Virus record (IMG/VR): IMGVR_UViG_2903506739_000001
Coordinates: 3,696-67,695 of that record
Length of the DNA: 64,000 bases
Source of the DNA: a virus
Strand: one strand, 5' to 3'
This document shows, one piece after another, positions 28,669 to 60,658 of the stretch. Positions within the stretch are counted from its first letter, which is position 1; every line of letters begins with the position of its first letter. The position numbers and the translations under genes are program-made. The notes under the pieces are model-generated. The model was not told the DNA's origin, ran no database searches, and saw nothing but the letters and a program-made list of their open reading frames with translations.

Positions 28669-30143
28669 CCAAGCAACTCCTCAAATAATCCACTGTCAGT
28701 TGAATTGATGTGCACGGGTACGGCATGCCTGTCGCCGTGCGGGCAGCCGCAGGGCATGCCGAGGTCGGCATCGCCGTAGAACCAGCCGCTGTTGCCGCAG
28801 TAATCGCATTCCGGCTCGCCGAGGAGGTCATCGAAATTGTCTGCCGGCGCGATCAGGCCGAGGCGGCAACGGATGTCGGCGGCATATTCGGCCTCCATTT
28901 CGATCAACACGGCTTTGCAGCCTTCATCGAGCGCGGCCTTGCCGGTGGTGCCGGTGCCGGCGAAGGGGTCGAGCACCGTGCCGCCCTTCGGCGTGATGTG
29001 GCGCACCAGCGACCTGATCAGGCCTGGCGGCTTCACTGTTGGATGAGCATCGATCGGCGCCCGCTTGCCGTCCGCACCGACGCAGCCGCAGGTTGGCCGG
29101 CCGATGAAACGCGTTCCGCAGCTGGTGCATTTGTTGATGCGGTCCTTCGACGATGCCTTGGCGTGATAGAGGATCGGCTGGCCGTCGAACGGGTAACTTT
29201 CGAAGAAGCGGGCGGCATTCGACGGAAAAAGCGCGGCAACTTCCGCTGACGCGTCGTGGGCGATGTTCGCCGGCCAGCGGCCGGGCGGATCGTAGTTGTC
29301 ACGGTCTTTGCTGAACTTGCCGTAAATCTGGTTCTGCATCGGCCCGCTGCCGAAATCCGCATGACGGTTTTTGCCCTTGGACTCGGCCTCGTCGTCGTCG
29401 TCGTGGAAGGGCACGCGGCAACCATCAATGTTCACGGCTCCGACGCCATGCTTGAGGATGTTCAGGGCACCGTTCTTCTCGGAGAATGGCTTCTGGCCGA
29501 CATAGATCGGTTCCAGCGCTGGTTTGCGCACCTGGCCGCCATAATGCCAGCCTTGCCACGCGGCGGCATCATCGGTCCCCGGCTCGTAGAGCCCCGGCTG
29601 GTATTCGCGGTTGTCGAGTTTCTCCCACGTGCCGTCCTTGTGCTGGTCGGCGCCGGGCCGAATGCGACGGACAGGATCGCCGGTCGGCACTGTCTTACCC
29701 TTGACGCCAAGCGCCTTGTCGACGGCAACAGCGGCGTTGTGGGCTTTCGGAAATCCGCTGGCGAAGCACCAGCCGATCATCGGATGGGTGATGAAGCCGG
29801 CGTCCTCGATCGCCGTCGCCATGCGGTGATAGGTGCGGCTCGAGGAGAAGGCGACGATGTAGCCGCCAGGCTTGAGCACCTGGAAAACGAGATGCCAGAA
29901 CTCGGGATCGTTCTCGATATCGGTGCCGTCCCACGTCCGGCCCATAAATCCCTTGGACTGGCGCTGGAAGGCGCCGTCGCGGCCGGGCTTGGCCGGCTTG
30001 GCATTCTCCTTGCCGAACCGCTTGACAACGCTCTTGAGGCCGTATGGCGGGTCAGAGCAGACCGAGTCGACCTGCTCCCCGCGTTCGATCATACCGTTGA
30101 GCACGGCGCGGGCGTCGCCCTCATGAAGCGTGATCGCCTTCAT
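28665..30143 (-). CDS. DNA methyltransferase, beta-class amino-MTase (N6-adenine or N4-cytosine; DPPY near N-terminus, FxGxG near C-terminus) with Cys-rich insertion; C-terminal FEELLG tail
   Basis: 492 aa ORF. Motif IV SDPPYG lies at ~aa 30. Motif I LDPFAGTGTTG lies near the C-terminus. A zinc-ribbon-like segment CTSCGTRFIGRPTCGC lies between them. Confidence 0.8.
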   Translation of the reverse strand: MKAITLHEGDARAVLNGMIERGEQVDSVCSDPPYGLKSVVKRFGKENAKPAKPGRDGAFQRQSKGFMGRTWDGTDIENDPEFWHLVFQVLKPGGYIVAFSSSRTYHRMATAIEDAGFITHPMIGWCFASGFPKAHNAAVAVDKALGVKGKTVPTGDPVRRIRPGADQHKDGTWEKLDNREYQPGLYEPGTDDAAAWQGWHYGGQVRKPALEPIYVGQKPFSEKNGALNILKHGVGAVNIDGCRVPFHDDDDEAESKGKNRHADFGSGPMQNQIYGKFSKDRDNYDPPGRWPANIAHDASAEVAALFPSNAARFFESYPFDGQPILYHAKASSKDRINKCTSCGTRFIGRPTCGCVGADGKRAPIDAHPTVKPPGLIRSLVRHITPKGGTVLDPFAGTGTTGKAALDEGCKAVLIEMEAEYAADIRCRLGLIAPADNFDDLLGEPECDYCGNSGWFYGDADLGMPCGCPHGDRHAVPVHINSTDSGLFEELLG

Positions 30144-30343
30144 CCCAACAGATCCTCGAAAACCGTGGCGCGCTGTTTCTTCGCCTCACGCTCGCCGGCC
30201 CGCCAGATGAGCAGCGCCGCCTTGCGGTCCCAACTGGCGTCCTCGATACGCAATGTCGGACTGGTGAACAGGCCGGGCTCGTGCTTGACGCTGTCGAGCA
30301 TCGCTTGGAAGTCTTGCTCGAAGAAACGTTCGAACGGTGTCAT
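30140..30343 (-). CDS. hypothetical protein with C-terminal FEDLLG tail
   Basis: 67 aa ORF with ATGA overlaps at both ends. Confidence 0.5.
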   Translation of the reverse strand: MTPFERFFEQDFQAMLDSVKHEPGLFTSPTLRIEDASWDRKAALLIWRAGEREAKKQRATVFEDLLG

Positions 30344-30660
30344 CAGAGCAGGTCCGAGAAGTCGTCCTTCGGCGCTGGCGTATCATCGTGCGGCGGTGCC
30401 GGCGTCTTGATCGCCGGATTGTCCTTGCCGATGCCCTGGAAATCGTGCTTGTCGGGCTTCAACTGGCCAGTCTCGACGTCGAAGCTCAGGCCGGTCTCAC
30501 TCGCCTTGCCGCCCGGATAGGCCTTGTCCAGTTCCTCGAGCAGCGGCGTCTTCTGCAAGTAGAAGCGGAAGGTCTTGTCGGTGCCCGGAAAGGGGTAACA
30601 GTCGAACCAGGGGTTGCCCTTGGTCTTGCGGATCGCGCCGCGCAGTTCGCCTAGTTTCAT
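30343..30660 (-). CDS. hypothetical protein ending DDFSDLL
   Basis: 105 aa ORF with a Pro-rich acidic C-terminus. Confidence 0.5.
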   Translation of the reverse strand: MKLGELRGAIRKTKGNPWFDCYPFPGTDKTFRFYLQKTPLLEELDKAYPGGKASETGLSFDVETGQLKPDKHDFQGIGKDNPAIKTPAPPHDDTPAPKDDFSDLL

Positions 30661-30670
30661 GTCAGTCGTC

Positions 30671-30898
30671 CTATCCTAGGAGATCGGCAAATTCGGTTTT
30701 CGGTATCTGAGCATGAGCCACCGGCATGGCGGCACGCAAAGCCGCTTCGGCGGTAGGTCCTTCGCCGCGGTAGGGCGATGGCATCTCGTTGCGCTTGTCG
30801 CGCAGAAAGCAGCGCCAAAGGCCGTCCACGCCTTCGTATAAATTGGACACCAGCAGCTTGCGGCGCTTGATCTCCGCGAGCAGCGAACCGGTGCTCAT
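30671..30898 (-). CDS. hypothetical protein with C-terminal EFADLLG tail
   Basis: 75 aa ORF. Confidence 0.5.
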   Translation of the reverse strand: MSTGSLLAEIKRRKLLVSNLYEGVDGLWRCFLRDKRNEMPSPYRGEGPTAEAALRAAMPVAHAQIPKTEFADLLG

Positions 30899-31002
30899 CA
30901 GAGGTCGATCCTGCTGACGACGAATTCCAGGGCAGCGGAAATCATGTCGCTGATCATCCAGCCGACAAAGGACCCGAGAACGAGCGTGCCGATGATGCTC
31001 AT
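30898..31002 (-). CDS. 34-aa hydrophobic peptide (not in ORF track)
   Basis: Reverse-strand reading gives MSIIGTLVLGSFVGWMISDMISAALEFVVSRIDL. Its stop overlaps the next ATG. Confidence 0.2.
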   Translation of the reverse strand: MSIIGTLVLGSFVGWMISDMISAALEFVVSRIDL

Positions 31003-31004
31003 CG

Positions 31005-31319
31005 TCACACCATCCCGAGCGCGGCTTTGTATAAATCGAGGATCGACTCCTCTTCCTGCCGCTCGGCCTGGTCCTTCTTGCGCAGGCGGATGATGGCGCG
31101 CATCGCCTTGACGTCGAAACCGGTCCCGCGTGCCTCCTGGAAGACCTCGCGGATGTCGTCGGAGATCGTCTTTTTCTCCTCCTCGAGCCGTTCCACCCTT
31201 TCGATGAAAGCGCGCAACTGGCCGGCCGCGACGGTTTGGCTGGTCTCGGTAATGTTGTCCTCCTTGGACACGCCGCGACCGTCGCCGCCCATCAGGTCGT
31301 CATCAACGCTCTTGCCCAT
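31005..31319 (-). CDS. GapR-like nucleoid-associated DNA-binding protein (DUF2312 family)
   Basis: Start at M30 of the track ORF. The sequence (…[70 protein letters not shown]) matches the conserved DUF2312/GapR pattern known from Caulobacter and alphaproteobacterial phages. Confidence 0.8.
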
Positions 31320-31511
31320 CGTCCTTGTCCTTTCTCGTTGCGGGGCTGCGCAGCGCGGACGTGTCGCGCCTGAACGCGACGGCGTGTCCGGTACGCTCGA
31401 CGCCAAGCATGGCCTTCAGGTCCAGGCCAGTAACCGCGTCGCTGAATGTGTAGGATCTCTCGTCCATGGTTGATCTGTTCAACAGTAAGTTGAATTTCAA
31501 GTCAAGCGGAA

Positions 31512-32393: not shown

Positions 32394-32463
32394 GGAATTT
32401 GTCTCCTTCTGCTGGTTGAAAACTGATCTTGCCAAATGCATTAGCGGGCACACATATTCAGGC

Positions 32464-33724: not shown

Positions 33725-34540
33725 TCAGAATCCAACCAGCGTACGAAGTTCGGCATAGGCGTCGGGCACCAGCACGACGACGTAGCGTCCGCTGTTGTCC
33801 TTCGCCTCGCGGATCTCGGCGGCACCGAACAGCGCCTGCAACTGCTGCTTCAGGCTGGATTTCTTCTCGCCGCCCATGTGCTTGGCCGTGGCGCGTGTCT
33901 TTCCCTCGGCCCGCGCCGTCTCGACGGCCTGGGTGAGCTTGCTCGTGGCCTCCGCTGCATCGCCAGCGCTCTGCTTGAGCGCGTTGACGGCGAGCGTTGC
34001 CGAGACAGAGCCGTCCCTGACCATTCGGGTCATCGTCTCGGGTGCCGCCTGCAGATTGAGAAGGTCGACCACCCACTGGCGCGTCAGGCCGGATTTCTGC
34101 GCGATGTCGGACTCCGTCCAGCCGAGATCGACGAGGCGCTTGAACACTTTCGCCTGCTCGATCGGCCGCAGCGGTTTGCCGGAGTTCCGCACGATCTGCG
34201 AGAAGACGCGGTCGGCCTCGCTGGCGTAACGGTCCTCGGTCTGCACCGGCAGCGACTTGATCTCGGCGCCGAGATGCTCGATCGCGTACTGCGTCGCGAA
34301 AAGGCGCCTATGACCATCCGAGACGAAGGCCTTGCCGTCGAGCCAATAGACGGTGAGATTCGCCTTGACGCCGACCTCGGCGATCGACTGCGCCAGCGCC
34401 AGGTCGTCAGGGTCGTCGGGATTGAAGTTCTCGGTGCGGCAGTTCCAGCCGTCCTTGACGTGGATGTCTGCCGGCGCAAGGCGGTAGGTGTCGGAACGGC
34501 CGACCGCGACGCCCTTTATGCCTTCCATATTCTTCGACAT
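33725..34540 (-). CDS. ParB-like nuclease domain protein with C-terminal HTH
   Basis: 271 aa ORF. ParB/Srx-type motif DGHRRLFA. Downstream helix-turn-helix segment (SDIAQKSGLTRQWV). Confidence 0.7.
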   Translation of the reverse strand: MSKNMEGIKGVAVGRSDTYRLAPADIHVKDGWNCRTENFNPDDPDDLALAQSIAEVGVKANLTVYWLDGKAFVSDGHRRLFATQYAIEHLGAEIKSLPVQTEDRYASEADRVFSQIVRNSGKPLRPIEQAKVFKRLVDLGWTESDIAQKSGLTRQWVVDLLNLQAAPETMTRMVRDGSVSATLAVNALKQSAGDAAEATSKLTQAVETARAEGKTRATAKHMGGEKKSSLKQQLQALFGAAEIREAKDNSGRYVVVLVPDAYAELRTLVGF

Positions 34541-34577: not shown

Positions 34578-34592
34578 TCAACAGTCGGTTGA
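34578..34592. promoter_or_regulatory. palindromic operator-like site TCAACAGTCGGTTGA (TCAAC-N5-GTTGA family)
   Basis: Read from the sequence. It lies between the terminator at 34609-34643 and the ParB-like gene start. Confidence 0.5.
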
Positions 34593-34608: not shown

Positions 34609-34643
34609 TCCAACAAAAAAGAAGCCCGGCACGGTGGCCGGGC
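34609..34643 (-). terminator. rho-independent terminator for leftward transcription (GCCCGGC-ACGGTG-GCCGGGC followed by a T-run on the minus strand)
   Basis: Hairpin plus TTCTTTTTTG tract in the minus-strand orientation. Confidence 0.55.
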
Positions 34644-35937: not shown

Positions 35938-36645
35938 TCACCTTTCCTCACGGTTGAATCTCTGGTCACGATTGAGCAGCGATCGCAGGGCAATCACTGC
36001 TTCCGTCTGGTTCTTGGCTCCAAGCATCTCCCAGAGTCCGTCGAGCGCGACGCGCTGTACCTGTTCCGTGATGCTCTGCCTTTCACGCGGTGCCTGCGGT
36101 TCGGCGATACCTTCGCAGACGATTCCGGCTTCACGGAACATCGTCGCGGCGGCCTCCATCTCATCACCCCATTTGGCCGGATCAAGCGCGCTGCTTGCGT
36201 CATAGTAGACGGCCGAAATCCCTGCCTGGATCAGCGTGCGACAACAGGCGGCGCATGGGTGATGCGTCTGGTAGACCGCACAGCCCTTGGTGCGGATGCC
36301 CTCGCGAGCGGCAAAGGCCACGAGGTTGGCTTCGGCATGCGAGGCATAAAGGTACTTCGCCGGGCGCTCGAAGCGCTCAGGACGGTCCTGCACGCCACGC
36401 GGCGGGCCGTTATAACTGGTCAGCCTGACCTCGCCTTCCGGACCGACGAGCACTGCGCCGACCTTGGTCGTGTCCTTCGACTTGGTCGCGGCATGGCAGG
36501 CGAAATCGAGCAGATAGCGAGTCCAGCCTGATTTCGGGGCGCCTCTCTGTTTGCGACCTTCCTGTTGCTCTTTGCGGGCTTCCTGGCGATCGTTCGTCCA
36601 ACCGAACTCCGCATCCCACGCCTGTCCGTCACTGAGTCCCATCAC
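35938..36645 (-). CDS. dCMP / cytidine deaminase family protein
   Basis: 235 aa ORF. Zinc-binding motifs HAEANL … PCAACCRTLIQAGI. Confidence 0.8.
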   Translation of the reverse strand: MMGLSDGQAWDAEFGWTNDRQEARKEQQEGRKQRGAPKSGWTRYLLDFACHAATKSKDTTKVGAVLVGPEGEVRLTSYNGPPRGVQDRPERFERPAKYLYASHAEANLVAFAAREGIRTKGCAVYQTHHPCAACCRTLIQAGISAVYYDASSALDPAKWGDEMEAAATMFREAGIVCEGIAEPQAPRERQSITEQVQRVALDGLWEMLGAKNQTEAVIALRSLLNRDQRFNREER

Positions 36646-37855: not shown

Positions 37856-38185
37856 CTATCCTCCGATCTCGGCGCGGATCGCCGACGCGATCAGCACCTG
37901 TTGCGAGCGCAGGACCTTCGCGGCGTCCGGATCGTTCTCGAAGCCTTGGACGAGGATGCCGCTGATGATGGTCTCGGCCAGGCGCTCGGCACGGCTTTCC
38001 GGCACCTTGGCGCCCTCGACCAGTTCGAGATTGCTGTTGTCGAACCAGTCGTGACCCAAGCGGCCGATCATCATGAACCCGACATAGGTCTTGTGGCCGT
38101 TCGACTGACGGACGAGACCTTCCTTGCCGGCGTACCTGCCAGCCGTGATACGCACTCGCGAATTCTCAACGAAGGCGCTTGCCAT
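37856..38185 (-). CDS. hypothetical protein
   Basis: 109 aa ORF. First gene of an operon downstream of the 38.2-38.5 kb control region. Confidence 0.4.
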   Translation of the reverse strand: MASAFVENSRVRITAGRYAGKEGLVRQSNGHKTYVGFMMIGRLGHDWFDNSNLELVEGAKVPESRAERLAETIISGILVQGFENDPDAAKVLRSQQVLIASAIRAEIGG

Positions 38186-38220: not shown

Positions 38221-38235
38221 TCAACGGTCAGTTGA
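38221..38235. promoter_or_regulatory. palindromic operator-like site TCAACGGTCAGTTGA
   Basis: Read from the sequence, ~40 nt upstream of the 37856..38185 start. It is flanked by the further half-site GGTTGAATTAA. Confidence 0.5.
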
Positions 38236-40608: not shown

Positions 40609-41023
40609 TGTCGGACTCCTTCACAGTCAGAAAGATTCGCTTGCCGGCCGCGACGGTCACGACCTTGAACCGCTTCGCTATGGCGTCGCGTTCGGCCTGG
40701 CCAATCCAGCGCTGCCAGAGATCGGCGGAAATCGACAATTCGGCGCCTGCCAGAAAGCGGCGCGACGTCATCCATTCGACGCAAACCGCGGCGCTGGCAA
40801 ATATCGATTTGAGCGTGTCGCCATTACCCCATGTCATCTGGAATTCGGCGCCGCTGACTGGCACAGGATCAATGAGGATGAGCGACGGCGCGCCGCGCTT
40901 GCGCCACCAGCGCCGGCCGTTGATCGTCGGAACCGCGTTGCAATGACGCGAGATGCAAGCCAGGTTCTTGGACGTCCGAACCGCTTTGCCGGCGATGTCG
41001 AGAATCTGCAAAGGCGCGCTCAT
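40601..41023 (-). CDS. hypothetical protein
   Basis: 140 aa ORF. Confidence 0.4.
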   Translation of the reverse strand: MSAPLQILDIAGKAVRTSKNLACISRHCNAVPTINGRRWWRKRGAPSLILIDPVPVSGAEFQMTWGNGDTLKSIFASAAVCVEWMTSRRFLAGAELSISADLWQRWIGQAERDAIAKRFKVVTVAAGKRIFLTVKESDNG

Positions 41024-41538: not shown

Positions 41539-41570
41539 TTGGTTGACTCCTTGTCGTGTTGGTTGAACGG

Positions 41571-42027: not shown

Positions 42028-44001
42028 TCAGACTCCCGCGTCCAGAGTGACCAGAACCGTTGCCGTTGCGGTTCCCGACTCCTTGAATGAACCGGCCTGC
42101 AGGTCGAGCTTTTCGCCGCTCATACGGTCGAACCAATCGCGAAAGCTTGCCGCCTTGTTGTCCTGGCGGAAGAACGGACCAGGCGACATCACGGCAATAA
42201 GCTTGCCGCCTGGTCGCAACATCGAATGAGCGTGGCGCACGTGCTCGATATCCTGCCCGTTCTCAAAGGGCGGATTCATCAGCACACGGTCGAAACGTGG
42301 TCCGCGCTCGGCTTCCATGAAATCGGCGCCGGCTACCGTGTAGCCTTTCAGCGCCAGGATCTCGCGCAAACTGTTGTGCCGTTCATACGTTGTCAGCCGA
42401 GCGGCTGGAAACCGCTCCCGCACCATGTCCAGAATTGCCGCGCTGCCGCCTTCCGGTTCCAACATATCGAAGGCGCCGGCCGGCATGTCGGCAAGGTAAA
42501 TCATGCGTTCGATCACGGCGCCGGGAGTCGGGAAAAAGCCCGGAATGTTGGCGAACTGCAGCGCCTGAACCTTGCGGCGCAATTCTTCGGCCTTGCGGCT
42601 TTCGTCGCTCGGCTTGTCCAGCAAAGCCCAAATGGCGCGCGCCGCTGGCGTGTCGAGCGACGGTTTTCCCGTGTCTATGCCCGCGTCATAGTAGCCGGCG
42701 CGGGAGCGATCGATAACGGTTCCGACAAGCTCGAAAGCCGCTTTCTTGGAAGTGACGCGCGCAAGCTCTGGCGCGATGGTTCCTGCCTCATGCTGACCAG
42801 CCAAAGCCCGCAAGGCGGCTTGCGTGCGCTGCAGCCTGTAACCGTCCAGACGTGCCGAGTCTGCCTCGCGTTGCCGCTTTGGCGTGTTGGTCAGACGGTC
42901 GCGCATCTTGCCGTCAATCTCGCCTTGCATGTCGTCGGCAAGCCGCCGAAGCTTGTCCGCCATGTCGGCACGCGGCGCGGCCTGCTTGATCTCGTCAACG
43001 GCCGACTCGGCTACCGGCTGGACGGTCGAACCTGCGAACGATTCCGCCTTGTCGCGAACCTTGAAAGCAAAGCCGCCTGGCGTCCGTCCCCATGGTTTGG
43101 AATACCAGCCGCCGAGCTCTTCCGCCTTGTCGCGCAAGGCGTCGAAGGTCTCACGGTCGACACGCTCGGGCATGATGCAAATGAACATCTGAAAGCCCTT
43201 TTTCGTGTGCGTGTGTTCTTCGATCGTCATTCCAGCCGCGGCGACGGTCTGGACGGCAGCGGGCGGCACGGGAGCGGCCAAAGCCCAATCGGCCGTTGGC
43301 AGTTGTCTGACCGGTTCCGAAGAGTCCCAAAACCGTTGTTTGCGCACCTGCCATCCGCTTGAATAGCGTCCGCCGACTTTCAGGAAATAGCCGGCGCCCA
43401 TGCTCCATTTCTGGCGGTTTTCCGCCGACTCTGGCGCGTCGACCAAATGCGCGGTTTCGGGCAGGTTTGCAGCCGCCTTGCGCATCTCGGGAAACAGGTC
43501 GCGCGAATGGCTGGAAAAGCCGAGGATGACGGTTCGAACGGTTTTGCCGCCGAAATAATCCGTCATCGAGTCGCTTTCATCCTTGATCAGTTCGGCGACG
43601 ATGACGGCTTTTGCCCATGCCGGAATCTTGCCGGCCGCGTCCGCTTCGAACGCCTGGCGCGCCTGCTTTGCCGAATCCCGATCGGCTGCAGCCTTGTCAA
43701 AGGCGTCGCGTTGCGCCAGGCGTGCGGCTTGCATGCGCGCTGGTATCTCGGCAGCCGGAACAGTCGGCAGGTTCGCGCGCCGTGCCCGCTCTATGAACGG
43801 CGCCGCAATGCCGTCTGCTAGTTCGGAAATCGGCGCCGTGAGACGATCGAACACGCAAACGAATTCGTTGCGGACTTGCGCCATGCCGGCGCCGATCACG
43901 AACGATTTTGTTTCTGGTGCCTTGATCTCGGCAATGAATCCGCGATTTCCGTAGTGGTCGATAAGAGGCGTTCCGATAGAGATTTCAACGTGCTGGTTCA
44001 T
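42028..44001 (-). CDS. large protein with C-terminal N6-adenine DNA methyltransferase domain (NPPF motif)
   Basis: 657 aa ORF. C-terminal SAM-MTase motifs (LEPEGGSAAIL … VLMNPPFENGQD). The ~400 aa N-terminal region is of unknown function. Confidence 0.7.
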   Translation of the reverse strand: MNQHVEISIGTPLIDHYGNRGFIAEIKAPETKSFVIGAGMAQVRNEFVCVFDRLTAPISELADGIAAPFIERARRANLPTVPAAEIPARMQAARLAQRDAFDKAAADRDSAKQARQAFEADAAGKIPAWAKAVIVAELIKDESDSMTDYFGGKTVRTVILGFSSHSRDLFPEMRKAAANLPETAHLVDAPESAENRQKWSMGAGYFLKVGGRYSSGWQVRKQRFWDSSEPVRQLPTADWALAAPVPPAAVQTVAAAGMTIEEHTHTKKGFQMFICIMPERVDRETFDALRDKAEELGGWYSKPWGRTPGGFAFKVRDKAESFAGSTVQPVAESAVDEIKQAAPRADMADKLRRLADDMQGEIDGKMRDRLTNTPKRQREADSARLDGYRLQRTQAALRALAGQHEAGTIAPELARVTSKKAAFELVGTVIDRSRAGYYDAGIDTGKPSLDTPAARAIWALLDKPSDESRKAEELRRKVQALQFANIPGFFPTPGAVIERMIYLADMPAGAFDMLEPEGGSAAILDMVRERFPAARLTTYERHNSLREILALKGYTVAGADFMEAERGPRFDRVLMNPPFENGQDIEHVRHAHSMLRPGGKLIAVMSPGPFFRQDNKAASFRDWFDRMSGEKLDLQAGSFKESGTATATVLVTLDAGV

Positions 44002-44025
44002 GTCATGACTCCTTGATTGAGTTAG

Positions 44026-44040
44026 TCAACAATTGGTTGA
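44026..44040. promoter_or_regulatory. palindromic operator-like site TCAACAATTGGTTGA
   Basis: Read from the sequence, ~25 nt upstream of the 42028..44001 start. Confidence 0.5.
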
Positions 44041-44044
44041 ACGG

Positions 44045-44935: not shown

Positions 44936-44966
44936 TGGTAGACTCCTTGTCGAGATGGTTGAACGA

Positions 44967-46374: not shown

Positions 46375-46428
46375 CGCATTAGCCTTTCATCTGTTAGTTG
46401 ACACATTGGCACAACGGACATGCTTTAG

Positions 46429-46443
46429 TCAACAGTCAGTTGA
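46429..46443. promoter_or_regulatory. palindromic operator-like site TCAACAGTCAGTTGA
   Basis: Read from the sequence, ~55 nt upstream of the 46087..46374 start. It is adjacent to a GTTGACACATTGGCACAACGGAC element. Confidence 0.5.
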
Positions 46444-47454: not shown

Positions 47455-47459
47455 GGGTC

Positions 47460-48300
47460 ATCTGTTGGTTGACACATTGGCACAACGGACGCGGCTTAGT
47501 CAACAGATGGTTGAACGGTAAGGCACAACGGACGCTAGGCCGGCGCCAGCTGGTCGGTTTACCTGTCAACCATGTAGCTACACACAGGCACAACGGACGC
47601 AGTCCGACATCGTCTTAGGTCGTCTCACGGGTCAACCGACGGATGATCTATAGGCACAACGGACGCGCGTCGTTGATCGTCTCACACTGTCTCACGCCGT
47701 CCGAGGTCGTCGCTCCGGGTCCTTCCCGTCAACAGGGTGTTGCGCGGGGGCGCAGAGACCCAGGAATGCGAGCCTTTTGGGATTTTTTTCCTACGCAAGT
47801 CGGGATAATCGTAAACCGTGCGGAGACTTATTGCGTGCTTACGGTAAACTCTCAGGCGAATGTAAGCCCGATTTTTGAAAATTTTGATTTTTACCCTGAC
47901 CACCCTGACCAAAAACGGGTTTACCCTGACCAGTCTAAACTATTGATTCTATTATTCTTTTATAGGGTTGGTCAGGGTGGTCAGGGTGGTCAGGGTAACT
48001 TTCCCGTATACGCGCATGAACTCACCGACCTGGTAGGGTGGCCGGTTGACTGATTGGCACAACGGACAAAACTATGGCTTATCGTACGCGCGTGTCGCGT
48101 GTATGGGATTCGGAATTTTACCCTGACCACCCTGACCACCCTGACCGGAGGGCAAAAAGCGCAATGAAATCTGCCGTTTAGGCCTGGTCAGGGTAACGCG
48201 ATTTTGGTCAGGGTGGTCAGGGTAAAAAATTGAATCGCGAAATCGAGGCGTTATATTCGCCCGCGAGTTGATCGTAAGCCATGAAAATCGCCTGTCGGTT
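47460..48300. repeat. non-coding repeat block: putative phage origin of replication (iterons plus AT-rich core)
   Basis: No credible ORF lies in this block. The 12-mer GGCACAACGGAC recurs at 47479, 47521, 47586, 47652 and 48055, with a sixth copy at 46409. About 12 copies of the 9-mer ACCCTGACC / GGTCAGGGT occur in direct and inverted tandem arrays (47891-47932, 47965-47995, 48117-48145, 48183-48225). They flank an AT-rich stretch at 47935-47965. Confidence 0.55.
47499..47513. promoter_or_regulatory. palindromic operator-like site TCAACAGATGGTTGA
   Basis: Read from the sequence, ~45 nt upstream of the 47236..47454 start. Confidence 0.5.
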
Positions 48301-48309
48301 GACATGGCA

Positions 48310-48564
48310 TCAGGACCGGCGCTCGATGATCGGAATTGTCTTTGTCTCGGAATCGTAGCCGCCCGTTCTCACGTCTTCCATGATGCGGGCGCCATTACGT
48401 AGCCTGATGGTTGACCAGGCGTATTGCGTGGCGGCGGCCTCGAACGCAGCGCGAGCTACGGCGCCGTTGTTCATCTCGCCGATCTTCTCGATCACATTGC
48501 CTTCGGCGTCGACGCAAACGACCTGGAAGGAGTAGTCGTAGATAGCGAACTGCCGTGGTCCCAT
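48310..48564 (-). CDS. hypothetical protein
   Basis: Start at M14 of the track ORF. Confidence 0.35.
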   Translation of the reverse strand: MGPRQFAIYDYSFQVVCVDAEGNVIEKIGEMNNGAVARAAFEAAATQYAWSTIRLRNGARIMEDVRTGGYDSETKTIPIIERRS

Positions 48565-50519: not shown

Positions 50520-50534
50520 TCAACAGTCAGTTGA
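50520..50534. promoter_or_regulatory. palindromic operator-like site TCAACAGTCAGTTGA
   Basis: Identical 15-mer to the 46429 site. It lies between the primase stop and the next gene. Confidence 0.5.
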
Positions 50535-50538
50535 ATTG

Positions 50539-52962
50539 TTAGATGTCGAAATCGTCTTTTTCGTCTTCTTCGATCTCGACGACCGGCTCGGAATGCCAGA
50601 CGATCTCGGAGCCTAGGAAGGTCTCGAAGGCCTGGCGGCATTCCTCGAGCGGCGGGAAGGCGTACTGGTTGAGGCGCTGGCTGCCGTCGCGCGGGCGGCG
50701 CGTCTCGATCGCTGGCACCAACTGGCGCATGACCTTGCCGAAATGGACCTCGTTGAGTTGCTTGCCCTCATAGCGCCGGCTGTGCATCCACCCAACATAG
50801 GTGTCGTAGAAATCACCCTTGTCGACAACGGCTTTTTCCTTCCACCAGTCGCCCTCGGCGTCGGCGGAAATGCGCCCTGATTCGAGCATGTCGAACCACC
50901 AGTGCTCGACGTTTTTCAAGCCTTCGATCTTCTGCTCGCCGAGCGCGATCGTGTCGGGCACGGCGCGGACATTGAAGCGGCTCAGATCGTAGTTCAGCAG
51001 ATAGTGCAGAAGGCCTGCCCGACCGCCGTTGCGCATCTCGTGCCGGATGGCGGCGAAATAGGCATGGTCGCCCTTCTTCGTCGGAGGCACGTCGAGCACG
51101 AAATAGCGGCGCTCGTCCTCGGTCGCCGGCACCACCCACTTTTCGTTCGACGACATGAACAGGCGAAGCACGCTGTCGATGTGGTAGCCGTTCAGGCCCT
51201 TTGGTTCGATGAAGAGGCTTTCCGTCGTGATCAGGTGCTTAAGCACGCCTTCGGCGTTCTTGGAGCCCGCCCAAAAGCCCTCCTCGACATGCAGCAACAG
51301 GCACTTTTCCATGTGCGCGTTGAACTTGCCGGTGAGCTGATCCTGGTTGGCGATCTTGACGTGATGGTGCGGAAACAGTCCGCCGACGTAATCGGCGATC
51401 GTGTCCTTGCCGACGCCCTTCTTGCCGCGGAGCACCATGGCGACGCCGGGCTTTTCTTCTGGCCGCTGGATCATGTGCGCCCACCATCCGAACGTGTAGT
51501 TTGCAGCCCGCTCGTCGTTCGAGCAGATCACCTTTCTCAGGTGCGCCAGGATGAGGCGACAGGAGGCTTCCGGGTCGGGCTCGACGGAGAACCCGCGCCA
51601 GTGGTTATAGGCCCCCTTGACCTCGCGCCCTGGTGCGAAGACCACGCCGTTCGAATACTCACGCCTGAGCTTGTGGCGCATCCACGCCTTGGTGACCGGC
51701 TCGGTCGCCTTGTCGGTGGCAACGCGGTCGTTCTCATAAAAGTTGTGGAGATCGCCGACCGTGCCGAGCGCGACAGCGCCGTCATCCTTCTCGGTCAGGA
51801 TTGCCGTCTTGCCGTTGAGGAACACGACTGCGTGCTTGTTGTTGAGACGCTTCACCTTGGGCGGCACGTGCCCTAGCGCCGCCTCGACGTCGGCCTTCTT
51901 CAGCTTCGTCTCGCGCTTGCTCTGTTTGGGCGCCCGCCCCCCGCCGCCGAGCAGGTCGTCAAACTCGTCGGCTACTGGCTTCTCGTCGAGATCGGAATCG
52001 GTGTCGAAATCGTCGCCGTCTTCGAGGTTGTCGAATTCCTCGGACAGTCTGGCCTCTCGCACGGCATTGACGACCGTGCGCATCGTGATCAGCTTGCGTC
52101 CTTCCTTGTGTTTGAAGGACCAGAATTTGAATTTCGTCGTCTTGTCGTCGTTCTTGTCGGATGCTCGCGACCAATCCAGGAAGGCCTTGTAGAACTGCTG
52201 TCGCTCGTCCTTGCTGCGGCCTGAACTCTCGTGGCTGACGGCGGCCATGACCTCGAGCCATTGGTCGTAGTCGAGGCTCTCGTTGGGGTAGTCCTTGAGG
52301 AGGTTGCGGACCTCGTCGACCGTGAGGCCGAGCGGCTTGGCGCGCTCAGGATCTTGCTCGCCGGCATCGTCATCGCCGTCGACAACCTTTTGCAGGATCT
52401 CGGCCGGCACGAACGGCCCGTCGCCGAGCAGAAGCGAGTCGAAATCGAATTGCTTCAGCCAACGGTAGGGCTTGCCGGTGTCGGGATGGATCGACGCGGG
52501 GATGACGACCTGCTTGCCGGTGCCGTAGAGCTCGATTTCCCATCGCCAGCGCATCTTGCCATCGGCGCACACCATCTTCTCATCGCTGTGGGCAAGCTGC
52601 CGCGAGGAAAAAGGCTTGTCGCTCAACAGGTAAAAATGGCGGCTCTCGCCGCCCGAACCTGAAATGACGGTCGGCCAGTCGGCCGATTCGGGGAAGAGCA
52701 CAGCGACCTTGGCGCGCGCTTCGTCCGCTAGGGATGCGTCACGAACGTCGAGGTCGATGACGTGCATCCAGTGGTCGCCGACCTTCGACCATTTGCCAAG
52801 GCGGACGCCGACATTGTTGCCGTTGCGGTAGGTCTTCCTGAGCTTTTCGAGGGACGCGACTGGTTTGTCCTGCCAATCGTCGCCGACCGGCCGTTTCGAC
52901 TTCGGATGAAGCCAATGGATGGCAAAGCCCGCACGGGCAAGGTGCTCAATGTGGGCGAGCAT
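50539..52962 (-). CDS. bifunctional primase-polymerase (prim-pol N-domain) / D5-like SF3 helicase; acidic C-terminus EIEEDEKDDFDI
   Basis: 807 aa ORF. N-terminal prim-pol-like region. C-terminal P-loop (MVLRGKKGVGKDTIADYVGG), as in P4 alpha / D5 NTPases. Confidence 0.7.
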   Translation of the reverse strand: MLAHIEHLARAGFAIHWLHPKSKRPVGDDWQDKPVASLEKLRKTYRNGNNVGVRLGKWSKVGDHWMHVIDLDVRDASLADEARAKVAVLFPESADWPTVISGSGGESRHFYLLSDKPFSSRQLAHSDEKMVCADGKMRWRWEIELYGTGKQVVIPASIHPDTGKPYRWLKQFDFDSLLLGDGPFVPAEILQKVVDGDDDAGEQDPERAKPLGLTVDEVRNLLKDYPNESLDYDQWLEVMAAVSHESSGRSKDERQQFYKAFLDWSRASDKNDDKTTKFKFWSFKHKEGRKLITMRTVVNAVREARLSEEFDNLEDGDDFDTDSDLDEKPVADEFDDLLGGGGRAPKQSKRETKLKKADVEAALGHVPPKVKRLNNKHAVVFLNGKTAILTEKDDGAVALGTVGDLHNFYENDRVATDKATEPVTKAWMRHKLRREYSNGVVFAPGREVKGAYNHWRGFSVEPDPEASCRLILAHLRKVICSNDERAANYTFGWWAHMIQRPEEKPGVAMVLRGKKGVGKDTIADYVGGLFPHHHVKIANQDQLTGKFNAHMEKCLLLHVEEGFWAGSKNAEGVLKHLITTESLFIEPKGLNGYHIDSVLRLFMSSNEKWVVPATEDERRYFVLDVPPTKKGDHAYFAAIRHEMRNGGRAGLLHYLLNYDLSRFNVRAVPDTIALGEQKIEGLKNVEHWWFDMLESGRISADAEGDWWKEKAVVDKGDFYDTYVGWMHSRRYEGKQLNEVHFGKVMRQLVPAIETRRPRDGSQRLNQYAFPPLEECRQAFETFLGSEIVWHSEPVVEIEEDEKDDFDI

Positions 52963-53040: not shown

Positions 53041-53370
53041 TCAGGAGAGGAACTGCCAGAAATCCTCGCGGGTCGCAGGCACGAATTCGCGACCCCTCTT
53101 TCGCTGATTCGCGGACAGCTTGACGATCTCCTCAACCTGCTTTGCGGGGATACGATTCGCGCGCCCTGGCTTGAACCACTTATAGACGCCCTGCCGCGTC
53201 ATATCGAGCTTCTCAGCCAGGCGGTCCAGGTCGCAGACGCCGTCTCGCGCATGCATGAAATCAGGCAAGGCCTGGGTCAGAAGATCATGCAGGGGTCCGC
53301 GGCTCGAGCGTGCCTTGCGGCGCTTCTTCGCCGGAGCCATGCCGAGCATGTCGTCAATGTCGATTGTCAC
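53041..53370 (-). CDS. HTH transcriptional regulator (Cro/CII-like early regulator)
   Basis: GTG start with AGGGAG 8 nt upstream. HTH segment LDRLAEKLDMTRQGVYKWF. First gene of the leftward operon from the divergent control region. Confidence 0.55.
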   Translation of the reverse strand: MTIDIDDMLGMAPAKKRRKARSSRGPLHDLLTQALPDFMHARDGVCDLDRLAEKLDMTRQGVYKWFKPGRANRIPAKQVEEIVKLSANQRKRGREFVPATREDFWQFLS

Positions 53371-53519
53371 TCTCGCATCTCCCTCGTTACGGACACAAAG
53401 CCTAACCGACCCCAAATTAATATTCAACTGCCAATTGACATGTTCAACTTTACGGTCAACTATTCAGCCAACGCATCGACCCGAGCGGCGGGCGTTTCAG
53501 CAACGAACCGGAGATAGAC
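53371..53519. promoter_or_regulatory. divergent early control region with multiple TTCAAC/GTCAAC half-sites and a TTGACA-N17-AACTAT promoter-like element facing right
   Basis: The sequence …TATTCAACTGCCAATTGACATGTTCAACTTTACGGTCAACTATTCAGCC… lies between divergent genes. Confidence 0.45.
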
Positions 53520-56333: not shown

Positions 56334-56335
56334 CG

Positions 56336-56599: not shown

Positions 56600-57831
56600 T
56601 GGGCCACTCCAAACACTCGCCGTCCGGCGCATCTCTATGGATGGGTTGCGCCGGCGCGCTCAATCGCATCAAGAAGCTTGGCATAAAGGATGACCGCACC
56701 AGCATCCATGCGGCCGAAGGCACCGCGGCGCATTGGGTGCGCGAGCAGTGCCTGGAATTCGGCTTCGAGCCGCACGATTTTCTCGCTACCAAGATCCAGG
56801 CGGACGGCTTCGACTTCGTGGTCGACGACGGCATGGCGACAGCGCTGGTCGAGGGCGTCGACCGTTGCCGCGAACTGACAATGCCAGAGGCCTCGAGCGG
56901 CGTTGAACTGCGCGTTGACACGACGCCGTGGGTCGGCCCCGACGACCATGGCGAGCCGCAAGGCGGCACGGTCGACTATTACGCGATCAGTGGCCCGGAG
57001 TTCTATCTCGAGGAGTGGCTGCTGAGCGACCTCAAATTTGGCGCCGGAATCGCCGTGTCGCCAGTGCGCAACAAGCAGCAGATGATCTACGCGCTCGGGC
57101 TGCTCAACAGCTTTCCGGATTACCATCCGCCGAAGCGATTCCGCATCATCATCGACCAGCCTCGAAACTCTGCCGGTGGCGGCGAGTGGGTCGTTTCGAT
57201 CGAAACGCTCCTAGCCTTCGGCGAAGAGGTCAAGCGCGCCGCGGCGGCGACGCGTGATCCTGATGCGCCCTGCACGCCGTCCGATACCGCCTGCCAATGG
57301 TGCCCGCTGACCAAGATTGACGGCGCGTGTGTCGAGCACGAAGCGTGGAAACTCGACATGCTCGGGCTAGATTTCGACGACCTCGACGCAGACGACGAAC
57401 CTGCGCTGCCCGATATCGACGGCTTGAGTCCGCAGCGGCGCCGCTACATCAACCAGCATGCCCACCTGATCACCAAATGGTTGAAAAGGCTGCATGCCGA
57501 GGAAATCCACGACGTCATCACCAAAGGTCCGGCGAACGGCGTCAAGGCCGTATCCGGCCGCATGCCGCCGCGCAAACACAGGGATGAAAAGGCGTCAGAA
57601 GCCTGGCTGAAAAAGCGTCTTTCGCCTGACCGTCTATTCCACCAACAGTTGATTAGTGTCGCGCAACTTGATAAAGTGCTCGGCAAAGGGGTGTTCCCGA
57701 AATCCCTCGTCGACCAGGGCGATCCGAAGCCGGTTCTTGTGCCGGTGGAAGACGAAAGGCCGGCCATCATCAGAGACGACGAGTTCGATGACTTGGATGC
57801 CGAAGATGATGCTTTCGATGATGACTTCTGA
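56599..57831 (+). CDS. PD-(D/E)XK Cas4/RecB-like exonuclease (DUF2800 family); acidic C-terminus DDAFDDDF
   Basis: 410 aa ORF with a C-terminal Cys cluster (C…CQWCPL…C). It occupies the position upstream of a gp2.5-like SSB and Pol A seen in many siphophage replication modules. Confidence 0.6.
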   Translation: MGHSKHSPSGASLWMGCAGALNRIKKLGIKDDRTSIHAAEGTAAHWVREQCLEFGFEPHDFLATKIQADGFDFVVDDGMATALVEGVDRCRELTMPEASSGVELRVDTTPWVGPDDHGEPQGGTVDYYAISGPEFYLEEWLLSDLKFGAGIAVSPVRNKQQMIYALGLLNSFPDYHPPKRFRIIIDQPRNSAGGGEWVVSIETLLAFGEEVKRAAAATRDPDAPCTPSDTACQWCPLTKIDGACVEHEAWKLDMLGLDFDDLDADDEPALPDIDGLSPQRRRYINQHAHLITKWLKRLHAEEIHDVITKGPANGVKAVSGRMPPRKHRDEKASEAWLKKRLSPDRLFHQQLISVAQLDKVLGKGVFPKSLVDQGDPKPVLVPVEDERPAIIRDDEFDDLDAEDDAFDDDF

Positions 57832-57851
57832 ACCTACGAGGATTACGCACT

Positions 57852-58508: not shown

Positions 58509-58522
58509 TTACCCTACCACTC

Positions 58523-58552
58523 GGGCGGCGCGAATGCCGCCCTCTTTTTTTG
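58523..58552 (+). terminator. rho-independent terminator (GGGCGGC-GCGAAT-GCCGCCC followed by T8)
   Basis: Canonical GC hairpin plus U-tract immediately after the SSB gene. Confidence 0.7.
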
Positions 58553-58562
58553 CGGGTAACAG

Positions 58563-60635
58563 ATGCTCGATCTGATCGACCTCTATTTGGGTCGGCTGCC
58601 GCCGATCGCCCAGGAGCGCGATGTCAAGGACGTCGTCTTCTGCGACATCGAAACATACCACAACCTCTTCTACGTCGCCTTCAAGCGCCGCTCAGACGGC
58701 AAGCGGCTAGGCTATGAACTGAGCCACCGTTCGGCGCTCGACCGCGAGGCGATCCGGCGCATTCTGAAGCGCTATACCGTCGTCACCTTCAACGGCATGA
58801 CCTACGACATGCCGATCATCCTGCTTGCTCTGACCGGCGCCGACAACGCCGAGCTCAAGGCGGCAAGCGACCGCATCATCATGGGCGGGATGAAGTGGTG
58901 GGACTCAGAACGCGAGCTCGGGATCACCATTCCGAAGTGGCTGGATCATATCGATCTGTTCGAGCCGAATCCCTCTGTCGGGGATGGCCTCAAGACGCTC
59001 AACGGTCGCCTTCATGGTGAGCGCTTGCAGGATCTTCCCTATCCACCAGAAACTATCCTGACCGACGAGCAGATGGACGATGTTATCGACTACTGCCTGA
59101 TCAGCGACCTGGACGCGACCGAGAACCTCTACAACGCGCTGAAGGAAGCTCTGGAACTGCGCGTAGCCCTTGGTGAGCGCTACGGCATGGACCTGCGATC
59201 AAAGTCTGACGCGCAGGTCGGCGAGACCATTATCAAGAAGCGTATCGAGCAACTGACCGGCAAGAAGCCGCAGAAGAACCCGCCCAAGCCAGGCACCGCC
59301 TTCAGGTATGACGTTCCGCAGTGGATGAGCTTCGAGACCGAGCCGATGCAGCGCGTGCTTGAGGTCGTCCGGCAAACCACTTTCATTCTTCGTGACGACG
59401 GGAAAGTGCTGTTCCCGAAAGAGTTCGAGAAGTTGCAAATCCAGATCGGCGGCTCGACCTACAAGATGGGCATCGGCGGACTGCATTCGACCGAGTCGAA
59501 CCGTGCCGTCCATTCCGATGACGATACGGTGCTGATCGACGCCGACGTAGCGTCGCAATATCCCGAGATCATCATGAAGCTCGGGCTGTTCCCAAAAGCC
59601 CTTGGGAAAGATTTCCTAAAAGTCTATCGCAGCATTATCGACGAGCGCCTAGCCGCCAAGCGCCGTTCCAAGGAAATCGACACTGAACTGAAGACGGCCG
59701 GCGCCAACTACGCGCCTGTGCTGAAGGCCGAAAAGCTGCAAATGATCGTCCGCGATAAGGGCGGCAAGATCCAGTTGAACGGTGTCTACGGCAAGCTCGG
59801 GTCGCGCTTCTCCATCCTCTACGCGCCGCATTTGCTGATCGCCATCACGCTGACCGGACAATTGTCGCTGCTCATGTTGATCGAGCGCGCCGAGAAGGCT
59901 GGCATTTCCGTGATCTCCGGCAACACGGACGGCGTCGTGTTCAAATGCCCGCGGCACCTTTTCGAGGGCTTTGTCATGAAGGACGGTGCTGCGACCGACC
60001 GGCTGGCGCCGTCGCCACTGACGGAGATCACCGACTGGTGGGAAGCCGCGACCGGCTTCAAGCTCGAATTCGCCGAATACCGCTCGATCTACAATCGCGA
60101 CGTCAACTACTATGTGGCGATCAAATCCAACGGCAAGGGCAAGCGCAAGGGCAGCATCGCCAACCACTGGCATCCCGACTCGCCCGACTACGATCCGGCG
60201 CGCGAGCAGATGAAGAAGAACCCCAAGATGACGATCGTCGGGGACGCGGTGCTTGCCTTCCTGCGCGACGGCACGCCGGTCGAGAAGACGATCCGCGAGT
60301 GCAAGGACGTGCGCGGCTTCCTCACCGTCATCAAGGCGACCGGCGGCGCCACCTGGCGCGACGGCTATCTCGGTAAGGTCGTGCGCTACTATTGGTCGAC
60401 GGACGGGGATTCGATGATCAAGGTCAAGGCGCATCCCAAGACCGGCAACCGTCCGAAGGTGCCTGAGACAGAAGGTTGCCGCCCGCTCATGATGCTGCCG
60501 AAGACACTGCCGGCCGATATCGACTATCAGCGGTACATCGAAACGGCGGAAAGCATTTTGCGAGACATCGGCTATGTGGAGAAACGAACCGCACTCATGG
60601 CGGAAATCTATGGCCGCGCCTTGCAATTCCACTGA
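58563..60635 (+). CDS. family A DNA polymerase with N-terminal 3'-5' exonuclease domain
   Basis: 690 aa ORF. Exo I-like FCDIETY. Pol motifs DADVASQYPEII (A), K…NGVYGKLG (B) and GNTDGVVF (C). Confidence 0.75.
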   Translation: MLDLIDLYLGRLPPIAQERDVKDVVFCDIETYHNLFYVAFKRRSDGKRLGYELSHRSALDREAIRRILKRYTVVTFNGMTYDMPIILLALTGADNAELKAASDRIIMGGMKWWDSERELGITIPKWLDHIDLFEPNPSVGDGLKTLNGRLHGERLQDLPYPPETILTDEQMDDVIDYCLISDLDATENLYNALKEALELRVALGERYGMDLRSKSDAQVGETIIKKRIEQLTGKKPQKNPPKPGTAFRYDVPQWMSFETEPMQRVLEVVRQTTFILRDDGKVLFPKEFEKLQIQIGGSTYKMGIGGLHSTESNRAVHSDDDTVLIDADVASQYPEIIMKLGLFPKALGKDFLKVYRSIIDERLAAKRRSKEIDTELKTAGANYAPVLKAEKLQMIVRDKGGKIQLNGVYGKLGSRFSILYAPHLLIAITLTGQLSLLMLIERAEKAGISVISGNTDGVVFKCPRHLFEGFVMKDGAATDRLAPSPLTEITDWWEAATGFKLEFAEYRSIYNRDVNYYVAIKSNGKGKRKGSIANHWHPDSPDYDPAREQMKKNPKMTIVGDAVLAFLRDGTPVEKTIRECKDVRGFLTVIKATGGATWRDGYLGKVVRYYWSTDGDSMIKVKAHPKTGNRPKVPETEGCRPLMMLPKTLPADIDYQRYIETAESILRDIGYVEKRTALMAEIYGRALQFH

Positions 60636-60658
60636 CAGTTGATTTATTGTCGAGTCCG

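Follow-up and report, generated by a model that had tools for sequence, protein, structure and literature searches.

A dispersed 15-bp palindrome in a chi-like prophage of Mesorhizobium is a probable operator of a phage-encoded repressor

The CI and Cro proteins of phage lambda use the same operators. In the Streptomyces phage phiC31, the c repressor binds conserved inverted repeats (CIRs). These are palindromes of about 17 bp that recur in many intergenic stretches of the early region, close to conserved promoters and terminators; the early promoters of that phage are not sigma-70-like. The stoperators of cluster A mycobacteriophages are oriented relative to transcription. One account of these phages (L5 gp71, Bxb1 gp69 and TipsytheTRex) describes a single immunity repressor with many genome-wide sites in short intergenic gaps; it binds as a monomer to the asymmetric sites, which measure about 13 bp, and when bound also stops elongation (PMC9283540). 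Here we describe the 15-bp palindrome TCAAC-N5-GTTGA, which recurs in a 64,000-nucleotide stretch of viral DNA (IMG/VR record IMGVR_UViG_2903506739_000001, positions 3,696 to 67,695; hereafter the window). We consider it probable, at roughly 70%, that the palindrome is the operator of a phage helix-turn-helix (HTH) regulator that represses dispersed sigma-70-type promoters.

The window belongs to an integrated temperate phage of the chi-like (Casjensviridae) type in Mesorhizobium sp. B2-8-9. That strain encodes, on a 454-kb contig, a protein 100% identical to the product of the primase-polymerase (prim-pol)/helicase gene of the window (50539-52962, minus strand), and we regard the phage as integrated and temperate because its right arm runs past the window into an HTH_3 gene and a tyrosine integrase. 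The closest cultured relative is the Rhizobium phage RHph_X2_30 (Casjensviridae; hereafter X2_30), in which the prim-pol is 60% and the regulator 39% identical and the gene order matches. Two HTH proteins are candidate binders of the palindrome. The first, a CI-like protein of 245 residues with a Pfam HTH_3 match (27.3 bits, cut-off 23), is encoded about 450 bp past the window end, adjoining the integrase gene, at window-equivalent positions 64456-65193 (12534-13271 of the contig locus L160, whose coordinates plus 51922 give window coordinates). The second, a Cro-like protein of 109 residues, is encoded on the minus strand at 53041-53370 by the first gene of a leftward operon, which has a GTG start; its match to Pfam YdaS_toxin (26.7 bits) lies under the 30-bit cut-off.

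This locus resembles the lambda-type CI/Cro systems (also P22, 434 and the CI of TP901-1) in having a phage HTH protein (XRE-type) and dyad-symmetric operators of 15-19 bp with half-sites one helical turn apart. As in those systems, a small Cro-like HTH protein heads an early operon. The operators would also lie over the -35, in the spacer or at the +1 of sigma-70 promoters, that of the repressor gene included, although the promoters here are consensus matches. However, lambda has six operators in two clusters, whereas at least 17 are dispersed in the window and three more lie at the regulator gene. The cI and cro genes of lambda diverge from one tripartite operator, whereas here the CI-like gene ends the rightward arm and is separated from the Cro-like gene by 11 kb, and the S24 self-cleavage domain of the lambda repressor was not found in the 245-residue protein. 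Stoperators are likewise numerous and dispersed in short intergenic gaps (in the window, 13 of the 17 sites are intergenic), but the sites described here are palindromic, would be bound by a dimer and occur in phages of proteobacterial hosts. In distribution they also resemble the phiC31 CIRs, from which they differ in that phage and host are unrelated, the repressor apparently so too, and in that the promoters resemble ordinary TTGAC-N17-TAnnnT. Since it has neither a divergent cI-cro pair nor an S24 domain, and since its sites lack the asymmetry of stoperators, the system belongs to neither the lambda nor the stoperator family but to the general kind of phage repressors with dispersed operators.

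The palindrome is real, strongly non-random and conserved. The window contained eight exact copies, against 0.03 in shuffled sequences, and 27 sites within one mismatch, against 1.4. A 21-nt matrix trained on 89 sites of other phages and prophages, none of them from the window, found 17 sites scoring at least 13 bits where 0.25 were expected. Thirteen of these were intergenic, two lay in the last codons of the upstream gene and two within a DUF2800 gene, so that 15 of the 17 are intergenic or at a junction. The initial annotation had placed the copies always in intergenic or junction positions, 10-55 nt upstream of the start codons of early genes. This was correct for most of them, but two are intragenic, the distance to the start codon ranges from 10 to 66 nt, and sites also occur in gaps between late genes (6904, 15573 and 22500) and inside the DUF2800 gene. 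The seven copies it listed are all exact matches (31479, 34578, 38221, 44026, 46429, 47500 and 50520), at the positions given except for one that had been put at 47499, a single base off. Its two degenerate copies are one-mismatch sites at 28689-28703 and 60628-60642. A scan of the viral_contigs collection with the 15-mer returned more than 100 single matches, which is the chance level, the 15-mer being too short for this collection.

The centres of the two half-sites are 10 bp, or one helical turn, apart. When 54 sites of 15 genomes and loci were compared, symmetry extended beyond the half-sites to an A at -2, found in 41 of them, and a T at +2, likewise found in 41, which gives the extended consensus A-n-TCAAC-N5-GTTGA-n-T; the sole consistent asymmetry is a preference for C at +1 on the gene-proximal side, yielding TTGAC. 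Comparison of the window with two Mesorhizobium relatives whose prim-pol is 85% identical showed unchanged half-sites and variation in the middle of the N5. Across 11 genomes and loci, single-mismatch copies numbered 114 (3.8 per possible variant), as opposed to 17 compensated double changes (1.1 per variant), and as RNA the palindrome forms a five-pair hairpin of -4.2 kcal/mol (z = -1.4 against shuffles). The dyad symmetry, helical spacing, invariant half-sites, variable centre, uncompensated mismatches and marginal hairpin together point to recognition as double-stranded DNA by a symmetric dimer and not to an RNA structure. The initial suggestion of a site for a dimeric phage regulator fits these features and the promoter overlap described below, with a repressor as the most likely form of it.

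We consider it very improbable that the palindrome acts instead as a small RNA hairpin directing the processing, stability or translation of the downstream gene. Its position 10-66 nt ahead of start codons would suit such a role, as would the overlap with a Shine-Dalgarno sequence at 46387, at X2_30 27128 and at 20731 in the Klebsiella phage YMC16/01/N133 (hereafter N133). However, the stem folds no better than shuffles and is fixed, not co-varying, and many copies lie over a -35, upstream of the predicted start, and so would not be transcribed from that promoter. An intrinsic terminator was rejected because the stem folds no better than shuffles; the terminator scan detected none of the palindromes as terminator-like, and no T-run was present in the site flanks inspected. 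A methyltransferase or restriction target, considered on account of four DNA-modification genes, was also set aside, as intergenic clustering and placement at regulator promoters would be unexpected for such sites.

Relative to promoter-like sequences the copies fell into three registers. In the first, the palindrome lies over the -35: sites 46429, 47500 and 50520 read TCAAC-N5-G-TTGACT and are followed after N17-18 by a -10-like hexamer (CAATGT, AATAAC), and site 53424 forms part of TTGAAT-N17-TAGGCT leftward and TTGACA rightward. In the second it occupies the spacer (34578, which was detected by a generic promoter scan, 38221 and 60628), and in the third it abuts the -10 across the likely transcription start (27742, 46387 and 47458). 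The overlapped promoters would be ordinary sigma-70-type ones. At 63 exact sites, -10-like hexamers lying 16-18 bp past the gene-proximal half scored 0.41 on average, as opposed to -1.85 on the other side and -2.65 in the background (Wilcoxon p = 0.001). A protein bound in any of these registers would exclude RNA polymerase, and for this reason we favour a repressor over an activator. The initial annotation had also raised the possibility of a phage-specific promoter class. Many copies do supply a consensus -35 (TTGACt) to a predicted sigma-70-type promoter, but since others lie in the spacer or at +1 the palindrome does not appear to be a promoter itself.

In another reading no dedicated regulator is needed: the palindrome would be an intrinsic promoter element, a consensus -35 joined to its mirror image, from which the host RNA polymerase would transcribe strongly or in both directions. 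The gene-proximal half is indeed TTGAC in half of the sites, with -10-like hexamers beyond it, the halves of 53424 would serve as back-to-back -35s for divergent genes, and the Rhodobacter phage RcPescado has another palindromic -35 (AGTCAA-N3-TTGACT) at three promoter-like sites. We nevertheless find this explanation improbable. Many copies occur where a -35 would make no sense, within spacers (34578, 38221) or abutting a -10 (27742, 46387 and the regulator promoters of nine relatives); site 44026 is only 24 nt from a start codon, and others lie in late-operon gaps or within genes (57470, 57638). The distal half-site is, moreover, conserved as strongly as the proximal one.

The palindrome was enriched in phages that encode both candidate regulators. 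Against an expectation of about 0.05 exact and 1.3-2.5 one-mismatch sites per genome, there were 8 and 19 in the window, 11 and 21 in X2_30, 9 and 16 in the Achromobacter phage AchV4 (vB_AchrS_AchV4, Casjensviridae) and 6 and 17 in N133, all with homologues of both proteins (the CI-like gene of the present prophage lying just past the window end). RcPescado had no exact and four one-mismatch sites, a CI-like homologue (33% identity) and a marginal Cro-like match (E = 0.94), and the virulent phage Chi had one and two sites, with neither a CI-like nor a Cro-like protein detected. Read across these genomes, co-occurrence ties the motif to the regulator pair but does not separate the CI-like from the Cro-like protein. 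When 5+5 palindromes with spacers of 0-9 nt were ranked, TCAAC-N5-GTTGA was the commonest in related prophages of Bosea, Aquamicrobium, Stakelama, Sinorhizobium, Mesorhizobium and a Rhizobiales isolate. In several Rhizobium prophages it was rarer, yet still present immediately past the prim-pol stop codon, and the copy after this gene (50520 in the window) was found in nearly all relatives. Another placement kept over great evolutionary distances is that before the major tail gene, seen in the window (6904), AchV4 (9440) and N133 (20731). Most late-operon gaps of X2_30 contain sites, and its site at 40633 precedes a gene annotated just as hypothetical.

The intragenic site of the DUF2800 gene (57638 in the window) was also recovered at L124 7189, L133 7164, X2_30 61600, AchV4 51263 and N133 1486. 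It is thus kept in phages of three proteobacterial classes, where the encoded peptide is conserved just as F-x3-L-[KI] and the leucine is invariably TTG, and for these reasons it suggests selection acting on the DNA sequence itself.

This distribution leaves very little room for a host transcription factor as the binder in place of a phage protein. Nothing speaks directly for such a factor in the host DNA covered, the roughly 5 kb that flank the prophage in L160. Phages of Mesorhizobium, Sinorhizobium, Bosea, Aquamicrobium, Stakelama, Achromobacter and Klebsiella share an enrichment of the 15-mer that Chi lacks, and the motif tracks phage-encoded regulators and their own promoters.

The promoter of the CI-like gene carries three copies, two of them adjacent (64370 and 64385) and one exact (64425). 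Copy 64385 overlaps TTGACA, which is followed by N17, TTATGG and then copy 64425. The same layout (TTGAC[AT]-N17, a -10, 0-3 nt and TCAAC-N5-GTTGA) precedes the regulator gene in nine of the ten relatives examined, namely Sinorhizobium, X2_30, Aquamicrobium, Stakelama, two Bradyrhizobium-group loci, AchV4, N133 and the present prophage. Roseibium, the tenth, has the site over the -35 of the regulator promoter instead. The regulator homologues are 33-41% identical to the Mesorhizobium protein (AchV4 36%, N133 33%). Since the site is kept at the start of this promoter across phages of alpha-, beta- and gamma-proteobacteria, the CI-like protein would regulate its own gene, and it is this autoregulatory placement, not co-occurrence, that makes it most likely the binder in preference to the Cro-like protein. 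The initial annotation had put forward, among other options, the Cro-like HTH, which does co-occur with the motif but is the weaker candidate.

Binding by the Cro-like protein alone, which would turn down dispersed early promoters including its own as infection proceeds while the 245-residue protein recognises something else, is unlikely in our judgement. A site does overlap the -35 of the Cro-like gene's promoter in the window and in loci L127, L129 and L133, and clear Cro-like homologues are found exactly in the four motif-enriched genomes. However, the family's most conserved placement is the transcription start of the CI-like gene's promoter (nine of ten relatives, three classes), and X2_30 and S. 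meliloti have no site within one mismatch in the Cro-promoter region. The two readings are not mutually exclusive. The Cro-like protein may use the same sites, as in lambda, and such sharing is the simplest reading by analogy with that phage. Three other candidate DNA-binding proteins, encoded directly after operator-bearing promoters, were a GapR-like DNA-binding protein (31005-31406), a ParB-HTH/KorB-like protein (33725-34540) and a KOW-motif (NusG-like) protein (37856-38185). These were set aside as binders, having no conserved link with the palindrome and lying outside the sequence covered in most relatives.

A structure model of the CI-like protein, built with 42 homologues (mean predicted local distance difference test score, pLDDT, 85), has a five-helix N-terminal domain matching the DNA-binding domain of TP901-1 CI. 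Its alpha/beta C-terminal domain gave weak matches to I-Ssp6803I, EcoRV and Hjc (E between 3e-4 and 5e-2), which have PD-(D/E)XK-type, restriction-endonuclease-like folds; no conserved acidic/lysine catalytic motif was evident among the invariant columns of the homologues. The predicted recognition helix reads S[PH]EAV[SR]KWF[AST]G in motif-bearing phages, as opposed to TSETVRKWNNG in the motif-less RcPescado.

In the mechanism that we propose, the phage-encoded HTH regulator would bind the palindrome as a dimer, with one half-site per helical turn. The candidate is the CI-like protein beside the integrase, probably with the Cro-like protein on the same sites. Bound over the -35, in the spacer or abutting the -10, it would exclude RNA polymerase, so that in the lysogen a single protein would keep numerous independent transcription units silent and limit expression of its own gene. 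At three promoters the operators form pairs 40-42 bp, or four helical turns, apart, an arrangement that would permit cooperative binding. Copies in promoter-less late-operon gaps and in the DUF2800 gene might block read-through or provide additional anchoring, and their positions suggest, by analogy, a role comparable to that of stoperators.

Several observations weigh against repression of this kind. The higher score of -10-like hexamers on the gene-proximal side may be inflated, since that flank is non-coding and of lower G+C content than the often-coding distal flank. The promoters are consensus matches, and a generic scan of these regions found no excess over shuffles. Sites 44026, 6904 and 22500 have no plausible promoter, so that repression of initiation cannot account for all copies. 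No S24 (LexA-like) self-cleavage domain was matched in the CI-like protein even at E-values up to 1, and RecA-driven self-cleavage is for that reason unlikely. RcPescado has a CI-like homologue without motif enrichment, which is a slightly better fit to a Cro-like binder.

A bolder reading makes the system a palindromic proteobacterial counterpart of stoperators, in which a CI-like repressor with a nuclease-fold C-terminus instead of a self-cleavage domain silences the whole prophage from more than 20 dispersed operators. We hold this as possible but doubtful, and hold as equally tentative its further elements: elongation roadblocks in late gaps, a codon-constrained DUF2800 operator and an operator near-unchanged across temperate Casjensviridae. 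If the last element is true, it raises the question of how distinct immunities persist, and a block to elongation at the promoter-less and intragenic copies, if real, would carry the stoperator principle beyond actinobacteriophages. Immunity systems normally diversify. An operator that stays near-identical while the regulators are 33-41% identical is unusual for immunity and predicts cross-immunity or shared control between distant phages. The sites also provide a testable regulatory map (about 20 operator positions, likely promoters and two candidate regulators) for a widespread, unstudied group of temperate chi-like phages and prophages of Rhizobiales, Achromobacter and Klebsiella, and would allow promoters and operators to be placed in the annotation of hundreds of related prophages.

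The sites are apparently undescribed so far. In AchV4, gp78 (CI-like, 36%) and gp71 (YdaS-like, 34%) are true homologues of the two regulators in the same gene order. The description of that phage relates gp78 to lambda CI by HHpred and predicts promoters and terminators, and neither "palindrom" nor "operator" occurs in its text (PMC7996906). Operators or palindromes are likewise not mentioned in a paper on Rhodobacter phages (PMC8601537). A literature search for these sites, for Casjensviridae repressors and for RHph_X2_30 found no published description, although one may exist elsewhere.

Sites additional to those of the initial annotation were 27742 (exact), 46387, 47458, 53424, 6904, 15573, 22500, 57470 and 57638. 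The late-region copies are 6904-6918 (TCAACCGCCTGTGGA, 18.4 bits), in the gap that precedes the major tail gene, whose ATG is at 6941; 15573-15587 (TCAACTAAATGTGGA, 29.2 bits), in the 15550-15580 gap of the tail-gene block and followed by TTAAAT and, about 11 nt on, an ATG; and 22500-22514 (TCAACTATCAGATGA, 22.9 bits), 26 nt upstream of an ATG. The exact copy at 27742-27756 (TCAACGGTTAGTTGA, 26.0 bits) abuts the -10 of a minus-strand promoter-like TTGATA-N16-TATAGT (27783-27756). The one-mismatch site at 28689-28703 (minus-strand TCAACTGACAGTGGA, 26.6 bits) falls within the 3' end of a methylase gene, 20 nt ahead of an ATG at 28668. In the gap before the GapR-like gene, the exact copy at 31479-31493 (27.9 bits) has TTGACT/TTGAAA immediately upstream and an ATG 11 nt on, with no Shine-Dalgarno sequence between; a message starting from this ATG might be leaderless.

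The exact copy at 34578-34592 (29.0 bits) fills the spacer of a minus-strand TTGACA-N16-GATTAT (34601-34574) before the ParB-HTH gene. Just upstream of this promoter and operator is an intrinsic-terminator-like hairpin on the minus strand (34624-34643; GCCCGGCC...GGCCGGGC followed by a T-run). The exact copy at 38221-38235 (26.0 bits) lies between a minus-strand TTGACA and TTAATT/TAATTC, 35 nt ahead of the KOW-motif gene. Both copies had been described as directly following rho-independent terminators, which is true of 34578 but not of 38221, where the local fold is no better than chance (z = 0.05) and the nearest terminator-like hairpin is some 600 bp upstream (38849-38828). Site 44026-44040 (exact, 25.0 bits) occupies a gap of 43 nt. 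The ATG of a gene for a 657-residue protein follows 24 nt on, too near for the site to be the -35 of that gene's promoter.

Two operator pairs of the same design follow. In the first, the upstream member is the exact copy at 46429-46443 (TCAACAGTCAGTTGA, 30.2 bits), whose gene-proximal half forms the -35 TTGACT (N18, CAATGT), and the second member (46387-46401, minus-strand TCAACTAACAGATGA, 14.3 bits) begins 1 nt past the -10, 42 bp away; its GATGA variant is kept in the relative loci L120 and L122. In the second pair, the exact copy at 47500-47514 (23.9 bits) lies over a -35 TTGACT, and its partner at 47458-47472 (minus-strand TCAACCAACAGATGA) is 42 bp distant, centre to centre; this partner scores below 9 bits by the matrix, yet is in register with 46387 and with L120 and L122. 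Site 50520-50534 (exact, 30.2 bits) lies immediately past the prim-pol stop codon, its right half reading TTGACT, N17, AATAAC. As first reported, it is identical to site 46429 (TCAACAGTCAGTTGA).

In the divergent region, the one-mismatch site 53424-53438 (16.8 bits) can be read as two back-to-back -35s, a leftward TTGAAT (N17, TAGGCT) that would serve the Cro-like gene and a rightward TTGACA, and exact copies occupy the equivalent position in L127, L129 and L133. The two copies inside the DUF2800 (Cas4-like nuclease) gene are 57470-57484 (20.2 bits), found at the same position in L120 and L122, and 57638-57652 (26.5 bits), which encodes F-x3-L with TTG as the leucine codon. Site 60628-60642 (one mismatch, TCCACTGACAGTTGA, 25.9 bits) has plus-strand TTGCAA and TTTATT on either side, lies 16 nt before the ATG of a C5-methylase gene and is conserved at L120 3502 and L122 2679.

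Other palindromes were seen in the same genomes. A symmetric variant, TCAGC-N5-GCTGA (TCAGCTGTCAGCTGA), lies at 61896-61910 in the gap past the C5-methylase gene and recurs at L120 1771, L127 7675, L133 1520 and X2_30 11537; either a variant of the operator or a CAGCTG repeat of no relation to it would account for this element. RcPescado (L163 and L164) has no TCAAC-N5-GTTGA regulon; its AGTCAA-N3-TTGACT sites are at 60169, 63041 and 65813, where TTGACT is followed after about 16 nt by TTAGAT or TAAACG, and its CI-like gene is flanked by two near-copies of the 15-mer (17123 and 17299). Two inverted repeats of the window had been linked to the palindrome. The one directly past the capsid gene (4838-4877) is a true inverted repeat but an element of a different kind, a 21-pair RNA hairpin (a perfect run of 16 and 5 further pairs) of -34.2 kcal/mol (z = -6.2) with no U-run. 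Its arms begin with TTCAACCGACAG, but the half-sites are 27 bp apart, and we rejected kinship; it probably stabilises or attenuates the capsid mRNA. The one past the major tail gene (7748-7785) has arms of 7 nt, folds no better than shuffles (z = -0.7) and is unrelated to the palindrome.

The region at 46-48 kb contains two further repeats. Six exact copies of GTCCGTTGTGCC lie on the minus strand (46408-46419, 47479-47490, 47522-47533, 47587-47598, 47653-47664 and 48056-48067), each followed 5-10 nt on by a TCAAC...GTTGA-type palindrome or a decayed version of one. Those at 46.4 and 47.5 kb fill the promoter spacer between two operators. The repeat, which reads as TGc plus CAATGT or CTATAG and resembles an extended -10, is invariant in L120 and L122, and a related CCGTTGTG is present in a Bosea prophage. 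A second regulator might recognise the repeat, or it might belong to the origin region. Between 47893 and 48223, ACCCTGACC occurs exactly twelve times, where 0.39 copies were expected in the whole window. The copies are grouped in threes, and the four groups alternate in orientation. They surround an A+T-rich core (about 47935-47965) in a stretch poor in open reading frames (47455-48310), none of which is convincing. The array looks like an iteron-type replication origin, and plausibly serves the prim-pol/helicase, which has a C-terminal winged-helix match. The short intergenic gaps at 41539-41570, 44002-44044 and 44936-44966 share a cassette of TAG or TAA, CCGTTCAACCA, a few bases, CGACAAGGAGTC and ACCAAATG. 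It thus combines a stop codon with a single half-site and a Shine-Dalgarno sequence, and the full palindrome is present in the 44-kb copy only. This suggests that gene-junction modules were duplicated.

Late genes on the plus strand occupy 1-27 kb of the window, a long block of small genes on the minus strand follows (27.5-53.4 kb), and the plus-strand replication arm begins at 53.5 kb. The major capsid protein has 48% identity to those of Rhodobacter RcD-cluster phages and also matches enterobacterial chi-like phages. There were at least 445 prim-pol homologues (E up to 1e-20). A megablast search of sequenced phages with 4.5 kb of the window found no close DNA match, the prim-pol had no relatives in viral_contigs, and Rfam and tRNA scans of the window returned no match. 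DNA-modification genes are numerous and hint that the phage DNA is modified. They comprise an N6/N4 methylase (28665-30143), a deoxycytidylate (dCMP) deaminase (35938-36645), the 657-residue protein, which has a methyltransferase domain (42028-44001), the C5 methylase (60659-61891) and a Mom-domain/SNF2 fusion (PF25680; 62167-64338 in window coordinates, ending past position 64000). On the host contig past the prophage integrase (L160 15082-16531) there are SLATT and SMODS genes, resembling a cyclic-oligonucleotide-based antiphage signalling system (CBASS), and a second integrase, so that this flank looks like a hotspot for defence or mobile elements.

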